A stretch of DNA of 64,000 nt, from contig JANRIL010000015.1 of assembly GCA_033764955.1 (NCBI GenBank), positions 32,001-96,000 of the forward strand. Reading direction: 5' to 3'. This DNA comes from Cyanobacteriota bacterium. Lineage in GTDB: Bacteria; Cyanobacteriota; Cyanobacteriia; Thermostichales; Thermostichaceae. The number at the start of each line of letters is the position of its first letter. Positions within the stretch are counted from its first letter, which is position 1. The position numbers and the translations under genes are program-made. The notes below the pieces were generated by a model. It did not search any database. It was not told the origin of the DNA and worked only from the letters and a program-made list of their open reading frames with translations. Shown here in pieces: positions 11,336-50,493 of the stretch.

Positions 11336-12652
11336 TCAAGAGCGAGATAAAGCCAGCCCGAAGTCAGCCGAGGCATCCCTGAGGAAGTGGAGAGCCGCCA
11401 TAAACTGCGGATCCTGCTCGCTGGCTACCTGCTCATAGCTGAGGGGTTGTTGGGGCAATTCCACAACGAAGTCAGGGTGGATCCCTAATTTATTGATATC
11501 GCGTCCCTGAGGAGTCATGTATTTGGCCGTCGTAATCGCTAATCCTGAGCCATCGGGCAAATCAAACAACGATTGAATCAGCCCCTTGCCAAAGGTTTGG
11601 GTTCCCACCAACACGGCTCGTTTGGCATCCTGGAGGGCACCCGCCAAGACTTCACTGGCACTGGCACTTCCCTGGTTGACCAGCACCACCAAAGGAGCCG
11701 TCGTCAGCACACTGGAATTGGCGCGGATACTATCCTGAATGCCGTTACGATCCGTGACCAAAACAATATCTCCCTCCCCGATCCACATTTGGGCAATCTC
11801 TATGGCCGCCTGCAAGAGTCCGCCGGGGTTATTTCGCAAATCTAAGATATAGCCCGCCACCGGCTGGGCTTCCGCCGCCACAATCGCTTGCTTCACTTCC
11901 TGGGCAGCATTGCCATTAAATTGATTGAGGCGAATGTAGGCGACCGTTTCCCCCGCCCGCCGCCCCGCCACCCACTTGCTGCGTACCGGGTGAATAGAGA
12001 TGGCCGCCCGTAGCAAGCGCACCGACATCTGTCGTTCTCCCCTTTGCAGCCAGAGATCCACCCCCGTACCCGAAGCGCCCCGCATTTTTTCGGCCACCGC
12101 ATCCAAGCTCATCCCTGCCGTGGGTTGCTGGTCAATGGCTACAATTTGATCCCCTGTCAAAATTCCCGCTTGATCGGCTGGACTACCTTCAATCGGACTG
12201 ATCACCATGACTCGCCCCGCCTCATCAATGGCGATTTGCAAACCTACCCCATTTAACTCTCCAGCCGTCGAGGTTTGCAGACTTTGGTAATGCTGCCGAT
12301 CCAGAAAGCGAGTAAAAGGATCCCCCAAGCTGGTCAGCATTCCCTCGATGGCATGATAAGTTGCCTCCCGATCCGGTAAGGGTTGAGCCAGAGCTTTTTG
12401 CCGCACCGACCACCAATTTTGTCCATTAAAGGTGGGATCCACATAGGCGCGATCCACCAATGTCCACGCCGTCGCCAGCAGTTTTTGTTCATCCCCCCAC
12501 TTGAGGCTGGCGGCTTGGGCTTGACAAACCAGTAGATGGAGGCTGAGCCAGCCGATCAACACCCAAACCCCCACCTGCTTGAGGGAAGACCATAGAGGGG
12601 ATCCCGTCCCTGAGCGAGGAGACCAAAACGAATCGCGTGCTCGTCCTTTCAT
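11336..12652 (-). CDS. ctpA: C-terminal processing peptidase (S41A, PDZ domain)
   Basis: LGDPFTRFL, GVGLQI, LDLRNNPGGLL, SASASEVLAGAL, TFGKGLIQ; divergent from petB as is common in cyanobacteria. Confidence 0.92.
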   Translation of the reverse strand: MKGRARDSFWSPRSGTGSPLWSSLKQVGVWVLIGWLSLHLLVCQAQAASLKWGDEQKLLATAWTLVDRAYVDPTFNGQNWWSVRQKALAQPLPDREATYHAIEGMLTSLGDPFTRFLDRQHYQSLQTSTAGELNGVGLQIAIDEAGRVMVISPIEGSPADQAGILTGDQIVAIDQQPTAGMSLDAVAEKMRGASGTGVDLWLQRGERQMSVRLLRAAISIHPVRSKWVAGRRAGETVAYIRLNQFNGNAAQEVKQAIVAAEAQPVAGYILDLRNNPGGLLQAAIEIAQMWIGEGDIVLVTDRNGIQDSIRANSSVLTTAPLVVLVNQGSASASEVLAGALQDAKRAVLVGTQTFGKGLIQSLFDLPDGSGLAITTAKYMTPQGRDINKLGIHPDFVVELPQQPLSYEQVASEQDPQFMAALHFLRDASADFGLALSRS

Positions 12653-12839
12653 GAGTCGTGATTGCCTTATCGTTCAGCAATTGTAAACACAGCTTTGATA
12701 CGTTTCTTTACTTTTTTCGGTCATTGGCCGATTTCTCTGGAAGTTAGCCCCCATTCCTCCTGAGAGAGGCGCAAGGGATCCGGTTTTCTCATGTTAAATT
12801 GCTTAAGAAGAGATAAGTAACTTCAGGATTCGCAGTTTT

Positions 12840-13487
12840 ATGAGCAAGGTTTACGACTGGTTAGACGAGCGGCTAGAAATCACCCCCTTTGTGGATGATG
12901 CCACGGGCAAGTTTATTCCTCCGCATGTCAACATCTTTTATTGTTTGGGTGGCGTGACGCTGGTTTGCTTTCTCATCCAGTTTGCCACGGGCTTTGCCAT
13001 GACCTTTTATTACCGTCCCACTGTCACCGAAGCCTTTGAGTCCGTGAACATGATCATGACGCAGGTCAACTTTGGTTGGCTGCTCCGCTCCATCCATCGG
13101 TGGAGTGCGTCCATGATGGTGCTAGTGATGATTCTTCACACCTTCCGTGTCTATCTAACGGGCGGCTTCAAAAAACCCAGAGAGCTGACTTGGGTAACTG
13201 GAGTTGTCTTGGCGGTGCTGACGGTTTCCTTTGGGGTGACGGGCTACTCCTTGCCCTGGGATCAAGTTGGCTACTGGGCCGTGAAAATTGTCTCTGGGGT
13301 GCCGAGTGCGATTCCTGTTGTGGGCACCACGCTAGTAGAGCTGATTCGCGGTGGGGAAAGTGTAGGGCAAGGAACCCTCACTCGTTTTTATAGCCTGCAC
13401 ACCTTTGTGTTGCCTTGGTTGATTGCTGTATTTATGACTATGCACTTCTTGATGATCCGTCGCCAAGGCATTTCGGGGCCATTGTAA
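12840..13487 (+). CDS. petB: Cytochrome b6
   Basis: [41 protein letters not shown]. Confidence 0.99.
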
Positions 13488-45420: not shown

Positions 45421-46047
45421 CTAATCCTGGCAAGGGCTGCAACTTTCCCCCAGCGTTACCAATTGTTCCCGTAGCGCCGCCAAAGCACGACCGCGATGAC
45501 TGACCTGCCTTTTTTGCTCCACCGACATTTCTGCAAACGTCAATCCCAGGTGGGGATCCCAAAAAATGGGGTCATATCCAAAACCTGCTTCTCCCCGAGG
45601 AGCGGGCAAAATCTCCCCACGGCACCGTCCCTCCGCTAAAGCCATGATTTCTCCGGCAGGATTGCTGAGGGCAATCGCGCAAGCAAACATGGCATGGCGA
45701 TTGATGGATCCCTGCTGGGTTTCGATGGCAGCTAATTCGCTTAAAACCCTGGCAATCCGCTCACCATCACTGGGAGCATAGCGAGCCGAATACACCCCCG
45801 GCGCTCCTTTCAAGGCGACCACGGCTAGCCCTGAATCATCCGCCAAGGCCCAGGATCCGGTGGCTAAAGCCACCCCGCGAGCTTTTAGTTCTGCATTCTC
45901 CCGAAAGGTTTTGCCGGTTTCTTCAATCTCCACATCCGCAGGCTTCAGTTGCAACTGCCAACCCGATGGCGTAGGCAAGCTGGCGAAAAACTCTTGAAAT
46001 TCTCGCAGCTTGCCACGATTGCCACTGGCTAAGATCAAAGGGGTCAT
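45421..46047 (-). CDS. rdgB: dITP/XTP pyrophosphatase (Ham1 family)
   Basis: ASGNRGK, LADDSGL, PGVYSAR, GFGYDPIF, SHRGRA. Confidence 0.96.
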   Translation of the reverse strand: MTPLILASGNRGKLREFQEFFASLPTPSGWQLQLKPADVEIEETGKTFRENAELKARGVALATGSWALADDSGLAVVALKGAPGVYSARYAPSDGERIARVLSELAAIETQQGSINRHAMFACAIALSNPAGEIMALAEGRCRGEILPAPRGEAGFGYDPIFWDPHLGLTFAEMSVEQKRQVSHRGRALAALREQLVTLGESCSPCQD

Positions 46048-46125
46048 GGGTTTTCGGGGTAAGTAAGGGATTTTTTAGCGTTACCATCAGAGTTACTATC
46101 TAGAGACAGTCCAGTCCTGGCAGCC

Positions 46126-47079
46126 ATGAATATTGCCGAGAATATCACGCAACTGATCGGTCGTACTCCATTGGTACAACTGAATCGGATCCCGCAATCA
46201 GAGGGATGTCAGGCACGTATTCTGGTGAAGCTGGAGAGTTTTAACCCTGCTGCTTCCGTCAAAGATCGGATTGCCGTCAGTATGATCGACGCTGCCGAAA
46301 AAGCAGGCAAGATTGTCCCAGGAAAAACAATTTTGGTGGAACCCACCTCCGGCAATACTGGCATTGGATTGGCGATGGCCGCCGCCGCCCGTGGATATCG
46401 TTTGATTATCACGATGCCAGAAACCATGAGTATGGAACGGCGGCTGTTGCTGAAAGCTTATGGGGCTGAGGTGCATCTCGCTAGTGGTTCAGGCGGCATG
46501 GGGGAGGCCATTTGGAAAGCCGAGGAAATCGTGCGGCGGACTCCCGATGCCTATATGTTGGGACAGTTTAGCAATCCAGCTAACCCTCAAATTCATCACG
46601 AAACCACTGGCCCTGAAATTTGGCAAGACACCGAGGGAAAAGTTGATATTTTTGTGGCGGGTGTGGGCACCGGAGGGACAATTACCGGAGTTGGCAGCTA
46701 TCTCAAGCGGCAAAATCCCAACATTCAGATTGTGGCGGTGGAACCTGCAAGTAGCGCGGTTTTGAGTGGGCGGCGTCCGGGATCCCATCGCATTGAAGGG
46801 ATTGGGGCAGGGTTTATTCCTGATGTTTTGCGGCGAGATTTAATTGATCAGGTGATAGCTATTGATGACGAAACCAGTATGGTTTTTAGCCGTCGCCTTG
46901 CCAAAGAAGAAGGGATCCTTTCGGGAATCTCCACCGGAGCTGCCCTAGCTGCTGCCATCGATCTCGGATCCCGCCCTGAAAATGCTCATAAGTGGATTGT
47001 TTTTGTCCAGCCCAGTTTTGGGGAGCGCTATTTGAGTACACCTCTTTTTCGAGATTTAGAAACGATCCCCAACCCATAG
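46126..47079 (+). CDS. cysK: Cysteine synthase A
   Basis: [39 protein letters not shown]. Confidence 0.97.
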
Positions 47080-47101
47080 ATCATCCATCCACTGTAGGGA
47101 G

Positions 47102-47192
47102 TGTTATCGTTGCCCATCACCCGCCGCCGATCAACTCTCGGACTCAACCAGTAACCTTTGAACGGTCGGGTGCATGGGCGTTGTTATACGGC
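47102..47192 (-). other. attC recombination site
   Basis: Minus strand: GCCGTATAAC-AAC-GCCCAT(G)CACCCG(A)CCG...CGGCGGGTGATGGGC-AAC-G|ATAACA; two extrahelical bases and typical spacers. Confidence 0.8.
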
Positions 47193-47216
47193 GTTTACAT
47201 AGTTAACTATCTCGCC

Positions 47217-47624
47217 CTAAACTTTCTCAGTTATTTGCTTCCACAAGCGATCAAAGTCTATTTCATCCCAACACTCCGCAATTTTGCCATCCTGGATTCT
47301 GTAGATAACAATTCCGGTAAACTCTACTTTCCGATTAGTAGGAGAGATACCATGAAATTCTTTTCTATGGGTTCCTCTTGTCGTAACACGAAGTACAACT
47401 CTGTCATTTTCAGCGATCATGTCTTCCACTGAATAATGAGAGTCGGGAAACGCTTCTACGAATGCCAACTCCAATTGCTGAAGCTCGTGAAAATCAATCA
47501 CGCCGTCCCTACTACGCCCAACAAAATCCAAAGAGATATAATCTTCAAAGCCATTGGAAAACCCATTATTGGCATTAGCAATCCAATCTCTTATGAGATT
47601 TCTATTGATCTCTTGATTCGTCAT
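47217..47624 (-). CDS. SnoaL-like ester cyclase / NTF2 family protein
   Basis: AFPD, EDMIAENDRV, GTHRKEFHGISPTNRKV, DGKIAECW. Confidence 0.9.
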   Translation of the reverse strand: MTNQEINRNLIRDWIANANNGFSNGFEDYISLDFVGRSRDGVIDFHELQQLELAFVEAFPDSHYSVEDMIAENDRVVLRVTTRGTHRKEFHGISPTNRKVEFTGIVIYRIQDGKIAECWDEIDFDRLWKQITEKV

Positions 47625-47650
47625 CGGTTCATTCCAATCAAATAAGAAAA

Positions 47651-48097
47651 CTATATTCTAGACGGTTCAACCATTTGAATACCATGCTTCTCAAGAATTG
47701 CAGGCATCTTGGTTAGATCGCCAGGTAAATCTTTGATTTTCTCTGACATTTCAATGAAAAAATCGTCAATTTTACCTCCGACTGCCCATGCAAGAAACTT
47801 GACAGATTGATTGGAATTGTTTTTGTAACCATGGGTTGTTCTAGCAGGCACATACACAAAGTCACCAGGCTTGATCATAAACTCTCCACCATCCAGATAC
47901 ATGATCATTGAGCCTTCTAGCATATAGTAGCTTTCCTCTTCTTTGGCATGAGTATGTGGAGGAACGAAACCGTTTGGAGGAACATCGACAGTCATAACTG
48001 CCATACTATTGAGTGTGTGCGTGGACTTTAATTTGATGCACACCCTATCACTCAAAACTTGTAGGCTTTGACCTTCTTCACCTTTCAGTACCATCAT
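47651..48097 (-). CDS. Cupin domain protein
   Basis: PPHTHAKEEESYYMLEG...PGDFVYVPARTTHGYKN; AGAGG RBS. Confidence 0.9.
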   Translation of the reverse strand: MMVLKGEEGQSLQVLSDRVCIKLKSTHTLNSMAVMTVDVPPNGFVPPHTHAKEEESYYMLEGSMIMYLDGGEFMIKPGDFVYVPARTTHGYKNNSNQSVKFLAWAVGGKIDDFFIEMSEKIKDLPGDLTKMPAILEKHGIQMVEPSRI

Positions 48098-48490
48098 ATT
48101 TTTGTTCCTCTCTGGAGCTAACACATAGAGGTACGTATGAACAGTTCGCTTGGATCTCCGGGTTCAAAAGTTTTGACCGATCTAGCCGTATAACAATCGG
48201 CTGTCCCCTGCCCTGGTTTTTGGCCTGCCGATCAGCAAGGTTTTCCTAGATAGCAGCATCAACGGGTTGACAAGGGGAGTAGTAGAACCAGCTACATTGA
48301 GGGGTTTAACGGCACCTTACGTCAGGGATCCTCGCCCCCAGTTCAGAAAGGGATGTGCTTCTATCAAAGAAAATTTATAGTCATTCCAATTTAATTTGAG
48401 AATCGCAAAGCCTATCACAGCTTGGTTAGAATGACTTGGCTAGTCGCATGCTTATCTGGAATAACGATAAGTAGCGTCGTAATATGTCCT

Positions 48491-49270
48491 TTACAAAAAA
48501 CGAGTCATCTGCACCCGGTAGCGACCCTTTTTGGTCTCCGCCACATCGTCAATTTGTAGGCGTCCCCGACCCCGTATGGTCACCAGATCCTGAGGGTTGA
48601 GGGGATGGCTGGGCTGAGTAACCGTTTTCCAGTTAACCCGCACCTCACCCCGTTCAATTTCTTGTACCATTTTGCTGCGGGACATGCTAAACCCAGCCGA
48701 AGCTAGCGCATCCAGCCGCAGAGAGGCTTCCACAGAGGCAATCGCTTTGGTTTGGGGAGGGCGAATCTTGAGATCCCCCAAGGGGATCCCCTTCACCTTG
48801 ACGGGAACCGAACGCACCTGCGTCAGATGGGTTTGTAGATAGTCGGCAATTTCGGGCAAGACAATCACCTGGGATCCCTGTTCCCCCAAAACCAGCAGAT
48901 CCCCCACCTTATCGCGGACAATGCCTGTCCCCAAGATGGCTCCCAAAAAATCGGGATGGGTGGCTGTATCAAACAAAAAATTGCCCTGGATATTAAGGGC
49001 GGCTAAGGGAATCTGCTCACGACTCGGCAACATCTCGGGACGGGAGATAGCTAGCCGTTGTCGCTCCGCCTGGGCATAGCCTCCCCAAGCCACTGCCCCC
49101 ACTTCCGTCAGTCGTTGAAAACGGCTAAGGGCTTCAGCAATTTCCGGTGGGGATAAAAAATCGGAATAGGTGACTTGCCACGTTTTGAGAGACTGCTCAG
49201 CAAGATCCAATAAGCGAGCCAAGCTTTCTCGATGCTCGGTTCCCTGCAACAGTTCACTTCTGGGTACCAT
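48491..49270 (-). CDS. YlmH/Sll1252-like S4-domain RNA-binding protein
   Basis: SDFLSPPE, GGYAQAERQR, HPDFLGAILG, ASLRLDA, RGRGRL. Confidence 0.9.
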   Translation of the reverse strand: MVPRSELLQGTEHRESLARLLDLAEQSLKTWQVTYSDFLSPPEIAEALSRFQRLTEVGAVAWGGYAQAERQRLAISRPEMLPSREQIPLAALNIQGNFLFDTATHPDFLGAILGTGIVRDKVGDLLVLGEQGSQVIVLPEIADYLQTHLTQVRSVPVKVKGIPLGDLKIRPPQTKAIASVEASLRLDALASAGFSMSRSKMVQEIERGEVRVNWKTVTQPSHPLNPQDLVTIRGRGRLQIDDVAETKKGRYRVQMTRFL

Positions 49271-49344
49271 TCTGCAACCCCATCCTCATCCCCCTGATTG
49301 AAAACTCTACGAATATCTCTTGAGAATATCTCCTGAAAATAGGT

Positions 49345-50493
49345 CTACAATTGACGGTTTTCTAGCATCATCTCGACAAATTGGCGAAATAGGTAGTCGG
49401 CGTCATGAGGGCCAGGGCTAGCTTCAGGATGATATTGCACGGAAAAAATCGGTAATCTGCGGTGGCGAATGCCTGCTACGGTTCGATCATTCAGGTTGAG
49501 GTGGCTGATCTCAATGTCGGGAGCCGTGAGAGAATCCCCATCCACAGCAAATCCATGATTTTGGCTCGTGATTTCTACCTCTTGTCTTATCCCACAGGGA
49601 TGATTAAGGCCACGATGCCCAAATTTCAGCTTAAAGGTTTGGCTGCCCATCGCCAAACTCAAAATTTGATGCCCCAGACAAATGCCAAACATGGGTTTTT
49701 CGGTAGCTAAAAGGTGGCGAACAGTGGCAATCGCCTGCGTCTCTGCTGCCGGATCTCCTGGTCCATTGGAAAGAAAGATACCTTCGGGATCCTCAGCCAA
49801 CACCCTCTCAGGGGTGGCATCCGCAGGCAAAACCGTCACCTGGCAACCATAGCGGGTCAGCCGCCGCAGAATGTTCCGTTTCACACCAAAATCAAGAGCC
49901 ACCACCCGTAAAGGCGGATCCGGCAGAGTAACCGGGATCCCATAATCCCACTCGGCGGCAGAAGGCTCTTGCCAGTCGTAGGCTTGGGGAGTGGTGACCT
50001 GAGAAACCAAACTCAAACCCTGCATAGAGGGGCTAGCTAAAACATGGGAGAGCAACTGCTGAGGATCCAAAATCTCAGTGGAAATTCCCCCATTCATGGC
50101 TCCTTGGGAGCGTAATTGGCGGGTGAGGGCGCGGGTATCAATGCCTGCAATCGCCGGGATCCCGTGCTGTTTGAGATAGTCGCTGAGGCTGTTCGTGGCT
50201 CGCCAAGAGCTGGTATAGCGAGAAACATTGCGGGCAATCACCCCTCTCGCCTGGGGCCGAACAGACTCTTCATCTAGGGAATTGACCCCCGTGTTGCCCA
50301 ATTCTGGGCAGGTGAAGGTAATCAGTTGTCCACAATAGCTGGGATCCGTAATCACCTCTTGATAGCCTGTCATCCCCGTATTAAAAACTACTTCGCCGGT
50401 GGTGGTGCCTGCGGCTCCAAATGACCAGCCTGTATAGCAGCTACCATCGGCCAGAACCAAAAGCGCTGGGGGAAGTTGAGAGGCAAAAGTCAT
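49345..50493 (-). CDS. carA: Carbamoyl-phosphate synthase small subunit
   Basis: [47 protein letters not shown]. Confidence 0.98.

Follow-up and report, generated by a model that had tools for sequence, protein, structure and literature searches.

Between two core genes of a cyanobacterial chromosome lies a complete integron gene cassette of 1,086 bp with no integron platform beside it. It occupies the minus strand of a 64,000-nucleotide stretch (hereafter the window, whose numbering is used throughout) of contig JANRIL010000015.1 of a Cyanobacteriota bacterium of the family Thermostichaceae. We consider it likely, with a probability of about 70%, that the cassette was inserted as a circle by an integron integrase (IntI) acting in trans at a non-canonical GWT site of the chromosome. 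This reading builds on the anatomy of the cassette, the membership of its attC recombination site in the attC family of the genome, two intact IntI genes, the mobility of the cargo between contexts and an unusual G|AT junction, all of which were observed. All sequence statements were verified on the minus strand.

Anatomy and boundaries of the cassette

Read on the minus strand, the cassette (Table 1) consists of a 96-nucleotide (nt) leader bearing the ribosome-binding-type word GAGAGG, then the cupin and SnoaL-like genes and finally an attC of 85 nt, with both open reading frames (ORFs) read towards attC. The extended R'' element of the attC (GCCGTATAAC, which is R'' with three extra bases, 47192-47183) starts 25 bases past the stop codon of the SnoaL-like ORF, and the cassette start forms a perfect 12-nt inverted repeat with it (47181-47192 against 48185-48196). 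An earlier note, made from the letters of this DNA alone, had described an excisable type of cassette with complementary R''/R' ends; the inverted repeat and the covariance-model match described below bear this out, and all coordinates in that note proved correct.

The rule that a cassette begins with the complement of its own R'' was followed through the genome by taking the 10-nt extended R'' of 61 attC sites and looking for its reverse complement in the 5 kb upstream of each. An exact 10/10 match was obtained for 14 of them, with about 0.3 expected by chance; for the studied attC it lies 1,002 nt upstream. In arrays the match falls at the end of the preceding attC, as in the series C28:10738 to 11655 to 13068 (contig and position), and the pairs C28:11655 to 13068 and C12:18165 to 19393, which belong to true arrays, both match at 10/10. 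The 10-mer GTTATACGGC has eight occurrences on both strands of the 3.8-Mb genome (about seven expected by chance), six of which make up three cassette-start/R'' pairs, the studied cassette among them. The 5' boundary is also the point at which homology to a cassette array of a related genome begins, and the matching metagenome contigs stop at 48196. We conclude that 47108-48193 is a complete, bona fide integron cassette with a functional-looking attC.

Structure of the attC site

The attC is composed of R'', AAC, an L'' arm, a variable loop, an L' arm, AAC and the terminal G47108; typical attC sites measure roughly 55-140 nt. Its arms, 47179-47163 (GCCCAT-G-CACCCG-A-CCG) and 47126-47112 (CGG-CGGGTG-ATGGGC), pair in L''/L' helices of 6+6+3 bp around a 36-nt loop, with an AAC spacer on both sides, leaving G47173 and A47166 unpaired in the arm next to R''. 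On the plus strand, the bottom strand of the site, these two extrahelical bases are C and T, G and T being usual for class 1 attC sites, and they sit at positions conserved in the nine-site alignment described below. Folding gave a free energy (dG) of -19.4 kcal/mol for both strands (z about -2.5) with the same two bases unpaired. As the criterion for paired attC ends we used an inverse core R'' of RYYYAAC and a core R' of G|TTRRRY; the R'' core GTATAAC (47189-47183) is one position off the former. Altogether, the site has R''/R' ends that pair in the circle, an L''/L' helix with extrahelical bases and the model score of an attC.

This score was obtained with a home-made covariance model, R1, built from nine other attC sites of the genome, the studied site being excluded. 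The seeds were candidates from a structural scan and from BLAST, and four of the nine lie in arrays beside the two intI genes; the scan (R''/R' complement plus hairpin) was noisy, giving 851 candidates at the chosen threshold, and served only to pick seeds. RNAalifold gave the nine seeds the classical textbook fold, which has an R box of 7 bp, a spacer left unpaired, an L helix carrying two bulged bases, and a variable loop; compensatory changes occur in 14 of the 23 pairs. R1 matched 47100-47192 on the minus strand with 44.6 bits and an E-value of 1.5e-8, the sole match in the 64 kb with default filters, which answers the check by an attC model proposed in the earlier note; the model is not fully independent of the studied attC, because two of its seeds, C11:12921 and C27:112986, had come from BLAST similarity to it. 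When 46000-49500 was searched with the filters off, the next best match was a fragment with an E-value of 0.37. A scan of 46900-48600 against Rfam returned no family at E-values up to 1. The closest relatives of the site are C36:55218-55308 and the two seeds just named.

Integrons and attC sites elsewhere in the genome

Two intact integron integrases (TIGR02249, cut-off 265) are encoded on other contigs, at C9:19-960 (463 bits) and C38:63588-64529 (451 bits); the contig of the cassette itself gave no TIGR02249 match. The earlier claim that there is no integron platform therefore holds locally, where no intI, attI or second attC is adjacent, and fails genome-wide, where there are two complete integrons and many arrays. 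Four further intI fragments or pseudogenes were seen, two of them with in-frame stops (C36:180-860, with two stop codons, C4:4-123, C30:655-831 and C38:182627-182934). Since several intI fragments lie where contigs end, integrons are probably places at which the assembly breaks. Over the order searched, integron integrases above the cut-off occurred in 13 of 30 genomes.

Searched genome-wide, R1 found 72 sites at E-values up to 1, of which 52 were below 1e-3. These 52 fall into 33 clusters at a 4-kb threshold, including 23 single sites; 19 of these stand at over 4 kb from the end of a contig. A four-attC array stands on the same contig, 65 kb from the cassette, and the subfamily of the studied attC also occurs inside the intI-bearing arrays (C38:54050, and a half-site at C9:2622). 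The attI regions of the two integrons (L009:1150-1195; L010, C38:63330-63375) are 78% identical over 270 nt. In both of them a palindrome, TTATACGGAAA(A)TTTTCCGTATAA, stands just before the first-cassette junction, and its half-site resembles the R box of the studied cassette.

Composition of the cassette and its cargo in other contexts

The earlier note had called the cargo AT-rich and free of GGATCC, and the counts agree. The GC content of the cassette is 0.417, compared with 0.515 for the genome, and its 1,086 bp hold no GGATCC where 3.3 copies are expected from the genome density (Poisson P 0.035); the word has 11,709 copies genome-wide, 3.08 per kb. Taken alone, the missing GGATCC is weak evidence, but it is in line with the cassette pool: ten cassette arrays, 43.5 kb in all, have a GC content of 0.448 and three copies of GGATCC (0.07 per kb). 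Imported or pool DNA is thus sharply marked in composition by the near-absence of this word.

As the earlier note had suggested looking for, homologues of the cargo were found in a cassette array. In genome G003, which shares the family but not the genus, contig C56 has six attC sites, all in one strand (L030, G003:C56:3828-12204), and the cupin and SnoaL-like genes lie between the fifth and the sixth, with 85% DNA identity to the studied cargo. The homology begins at the first bases of the cassette, directly after the terminal G of the fifth attC. Between these two genomes cysK is only 68% identical, and the difference points to horizontal movement of the cargo. Intact intI genes of G003 lie on other contigs, none being found on the fetched 20 kb of the six-attC array. 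The G003 copy has 140 nt between the two genes, and its SnoaL-like gene has a different 3' end that is fused to additional sequence preceding the next attC.

In two lake or freshwater metagenomes there are contigs that match 47311-48196 with an identity of about 94% (50 differences and 2 gaps in 886). Beyond 48196 they continue into 21 unrelated letters that end, on the minus strand, in GTATAATAAGTTG before the cassette start. This left sequence has GTATAATA in common with the resident attI, which reads CCGTATAATACATAG|TT (C9) or CCGTATACTAACTAG|TT (C38) at the first-cassette junction. As the flank is attI-like, the cassette is probably the first one in an integron of the resident family in those organisms. 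The G003 and metagenome copies part from the studied cassette within the last stretch of the SnoaL-like gene, and therefore their attC sites differ from the studied one. Separate metagenome contigs of high depth match the attC only, and three of these begin exactly at 47108. In four sequencing runs (0.05-0.07 of the stretch) neither a joint across the cassette nor a circle junction was seen; their contigs are of other organisms and hence silent on excision here. A search of genome contigs with the cupin protein gave two loci, neither with an attC.

The G|AT junction and the proposed insertion

At the 3' end of the cassette the attC joins its flank as G|AT. This is rare in the genome: among the 52 attC sites with E-values below 1e-3, the R' triplet is GTT in 49, ATT in one and GAT in two, the studied site and C36:55218. 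Flank G48194 together with flank A47107 and T47106 gives G|AT, which fits the minimal 5'-GWT-3' of attG sites, and GATAA fits the secondary-site consensus GWTMW, as the earlier note had pointed out.

We propose that a circle carrying the cupin and SnoaL-like genes would have come from the cyanobacterial cassette pool, and that the IntI of the C9 or the C38 integron would have acted on it in trans. The folded bottom strand of the cassette attC would pair with a double-stranded non-att site 28 nt downstream of cysK, a single strand would be exchanged between the G and the AT of 5'-G|AT-3', and replication would then resolve the recombination product. The outcome would be two hybrid junctions, on the left flank-G|TTATACGGC and on the right attC-G|ATAAC, with an R box unable to pair. 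Delivery of a single cassette to the core chromosome by an integrase in trans, as put forward in the earlier note, is supported by the intact intI genes elsewhere and by the G|AT junction; catalysis by IntI, and an event at this exact site in this lineage, we infer.

The note had also suggested that the hybrid junction locks the cassette in place. With the R' of the circle, the bottom strand folds at -28.9 kcal/mol with nine of the ten end bases paired; in the genomic form the values are -19.4 kcal/mol and none of ten. These predictions would fit, indirectly, with a damaged R box that now hinders excision. Against such a lock speaks the attG preprint, according to which some genome-inserted cassettes are still excisable.

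Alternative explanations

Several observations weigh against an insertion by IntI at this site. When 46600-48800 was compared at the DNA level with 30 related genomes, cysK and the S4-domain gene on the other side of the cassette were found on different contigs or far apart. Likewise, tblastn of nine window proteins against nine loci from nine relatives revealed no shared neighbours, and among 30 metagenome loci found with the S4-domain protein (best identity 72%) none had cysK or carA adjacent. As no empty site was seen in relatives, the insertion itself is something we infer, and as the two flanking genes are neighbours in none of these genomes and metagenome loci, the locus may be a rearrangement point and not a simple insertion. 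The CRGM motif at +6 to +9 is absent, these positions reading ACTC; this right-hand motif was defined for IntI1 hotspots in E. coli and characterises hotspots, not all attG sites. Furthermore, the closest attC relative, C36:55218, also has G|AT, so GAT might be a trait of the subfamily and not a target-derived hybrid, and a single T-to-A change after an insertion at G|TT would yield the same junction.

The lack of conserved synteny around cysK and the S4-domain gene would also suit a cassette that is all that remains of a larger array or integron once present at this place, or that was brought in by rearrangement, its adjacent attC or attI having since been deleted or mutated past recognition. 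The genome is full of arrays and intI fragments, a transposon-like repeat lies about 180 nt away, and rearrangement and decay are named as sources of orphan attC sites by Cury et al. (PMC4889954). We nevertheless regard this history as unlikely. There are merely 28 nt between the junction and the cysK stop codon, the 179-nt spacer on the other side contains GGATCC and gave no model match even with the filters off, and neither of the two resident attI regions resembles the left flank. Nor is G|AT what an array neighbour would leave, because 49 of 52 sites read G|TT. Far less probable still is a reading in which the hairpin arose by chance or is an inverted repeat of the terminator type, beside two ordinary chromosomal genes. 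It would suit this reading that the site is placed between convergent genes, a common position of terminator hairpins, and that more distant cupin homologues (L038, 58% identity) have no attC beside them; against it stand the model E-value of 1.5e-8, the unpaired bases at conserved positions, the 12-nt complementarity of start and R'', the same cargo in an array elsewhere and a composition foreign to the host.

A possible preferred target

Alternatively, the cassette might have landed in a preferred, sequence-specific pad and not at a random GWT. We found a motif of 21-27 nt, GTTATCGAATTGATNACAGAC(C), directly after seven attC-like sites (Table 1), followed by unrelated DNA. One of these sites, an attC-like site with the 21-nt motif at C38:64690-64800, lies shortly past the 3' end of the C38 intI; it is oriented like intI, whereas the C38 cassette array runs the other way. 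The joined flanks of the studied cassette resemble the motif (consensus GTTATCGAATTGATGACAGAC) around an internal G|AT: joined in silico, they match the 27-nt consensus at 17 positions, which was equalled by 206 of 200,000 simulated 1,086-bp deletions (P about 1e-3). This comparison was made after the resemblance had been noticed by eye, and it uses an identity count in place of a position-weight score; the latter gave no signal, with 7,084 of 20,000 random windows scoring as well. The motif occurs nowhere else in the genome at up to two mismatches and in none of 29 other genomes of the order, which speaks for such a pad, but the genome also has no unoccupied copy of it. TTATGGAATTG forms the left flank of a further single cassette, C1:44901, and the motif has CAGA at +5 to +8 after the internal G|AT, one base off the IntI1 hotspot CRGM. 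On the other hand, attC joins the motif at its first G and not the internal one at all seven loci, whose left flanks have nothing in common. The evidence is thin and gives hints of a pad; we think it improbable that one guided this insertion.

With 23 single attC loci beside two intact integrases, the genome might also be a natural record of cassette escape on a large scale, perhaps guided by a lineage-specific pad of 21-27 nt, a suggestion that we put forward as doubtful. If it were true, the motif would be a sequence-defined secondary attachment site of a non-clinical IntI, in contrast to the near-random GWT targets of IntI1-3.

Comparison with known systems

Cassette insertion outside integrons has already been described under the names attG and SALIN (single attC site lacking an integron integrase), with the crossover at 5'-GWT-3' in double-stranded genomic DNA, of which only the bottom strand is cleaved, according to the published accounts. 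The criterion for a SALIN is a single attC with a coding sequence (CDS) and with no other attC or intI within about 4 kb. The studied locus is one, with a CDS, a single attC and a cluster size of 1 at the 4-kb threshold, and, having no adjacent intI or attI, it is not a complete integron. It resembles the attG and SALIN cases in its one CDS-bearing cassette, its one attC and the lack of an att site or intI nearby, with an integrase presumed to act in trans; it differs in being a natural event in a cyanobacterium with sedentary integrons of its own and not one of IntI1-3 in E. coli, and it lacks the CRGM of the hotspots at +6 to +9. The SALIN survey reports a single SALIN in 1,847 of 2,469 SALIN-bearing genomes, whereas the genome studied here has 23 single attC sites.

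The secondary-site consensus of IntI1 is given as GWTMW or GNT in the review PMC4618277. The studied locus is like such insertions in its GATAA, in the single cassette outside an integron and in the hybrid, poorly pairing R', and unlike the classical cases, which involve resistance cassettes and plasmids, in its metabolic cargo and its intergenic target in the core chromosome. Cury et al. 2016 (PMC4889954) require at least two attC sites for a cluster lacking an integron integrase (CALIN), discard single sites as possible false positives and list Cyanobacteria among the phyla with integrons. As in their account, the studied attC belongs to a genome-specific attC family that resident integrons and CALINs share; unlike a CALIN, the studied site is single, and its boundaries, together with homologues that lie in arrays, validate it here. 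In the accessible portions of the literature on integrons, attG, SALIN, CALIN and secondary sites, no paper on escaped cassettes in cyanobacteria was found.

The SALIN and attG concepts are thus already in print, and the locus is an unusually well-resolved natural example of them. Escape had been shown in E. coli with integrases of clinical origin, and surveys of genomes had given counts of single attC sites that were not validated. Here one such attC was validated base by base, with both junctions, the source pool and the candidate integrases in view, in an environmental phototroph whose iterated GGATCC marks resident against imported DNA. The locus is a substrate for asking whether a cyanobacterial IntI acts on attG-type sites, whether G|AT freezes a cassette and whether the cargo is expressed from a host promoter; the picture of how integrons work is unchanged.

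A second single cassette with a G|AT junction and the most similar attC lies at C36:55119-56435 (L011:15120-16436). Its two ORFs gave no NCBIfam match but look XisH/XisI-like. On either side of this cassette stands a copy of a 103-nt direct repeat, a duplication of the 3' end of an AraC-type gene; the two copies are 98% identical and 1,214 nt apart.

Cargo genes, expression and chromosomal setting

Table 1. Positions of the cassette, its parts and neighbours in the window, and of related loci on other contigs.
Feature	Position	Strand	Basis or remarks
Complete cassette of 1,086 bp, made up of leader, two ORFs and attC	47108-48193	-	Boundaries from R''/5'-end complementarity
5' junction: flank G48194, then TTATACGGC (48193-48185)	48185-48194	-	Exact reverse complement of R'' 47192-47183
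Cupin gene, 148 amino acids from ATG 48097; longest ORF from GTG 48124	47651-48097	-	Pfam Cupin_2 PF07883, 3.5e-18
SnoaL-like (NTF2-fold) gene, 135 amino acids	47217-47624	-	Pfam SnoaL PF07366, 5.9e-29
attC, 85 nt	47108-47192	-	Model R1 and folding; R'' at 47192-47183
3' junction: attC G47108, then flank ATAAC (47107-47103)	47103-47108	-	Reads G|AT
cysK, converging on the cassette; stop codon 28 nt from the 3' junction	46126-47079	+	TIGR01139, 446.8 bits, over cut-off
Native spacer between cassette and MITE, 179 nt	48195-48373		GGATCC at 48326
Miniature inverted-repeat transposable element (MITE), about 95 bp, outside the cassette	48374-48470		Terminal inverted repeats TAGTCATTCC...; repeat copies in genome
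Sll1252-family photosystem II S4-domain gene, co-oriented with the cassette	48491-49270	-	TIGR03069, 344.4 bits, over cut-off; Pfam YlmH_RBD and S4
Arrays with scarce GGATCC	C9:1190-6554, C38:54050-63340, C28:10311-14605 and 7 others		
Motif loci	C4:15557, C27:18905, C7:103493, C11:33788, C23:45268, C27:112546, C38:64780		

Pfam matches agree with the earlier description of the cargo as a cupin and a SnoaL-like protein. The best solved relative of the former is the C-terminal cupin of the Bacillus quercetin 2,3-dioxygenase YxaG (E-value 2e-22), and those of the latter are SnoaL-family hydroxylases and ester cyclases (best E-value 1.4e-19). Judged by family, this suggests a small pair of enzymes that tailor or degrade aromatic compounds. 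Because the cassette and the S4-domain gene upstream of it point the same way, expression by read-through is possible. A scan for consensus promoters found none on the minus strand upstream of the cupin gene; the scan was weak, with four sites against 2.7 expected, and neither promoter nor terminator counts rose above those of shuffled sequences. A terminator-like hairpin lies at 48517-48501.

Both neighbours of the cassette are core genes. The earlier note had named them cysK, which stands, and a ylmH-like gene, which can be refined to a photosystem II S4-domain protein of the Sll1252 family by an equivalog-level match to TIGR03069. The window also encodes cytochrome b6 and subunit IV, from which the host is an oxygenic phototroph.

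The same note had considered that an attI or intI remnant at 48195-48490 would make the locus a decayed integron. No remnant of attC, attI or intI was found in 46000-49500 by R1 with the filters off and by BLAST against the resident attI regions; within it, the spacer gave no attC and no similarity to the attI region of C9 or C38. An upstream attC or attI remnant at 48195-48490 was accordingly rejected as a candidate, and the repeat there is the MITE. This element has the terminal repeats TATAGTCATTCC ... GGAATGACTATA; its copies in the genome number at least 31 (73-96% identity; e.g. C34:88220-88313 and C38:186384-186625), and several of them lie within 3 kb of attC sites.

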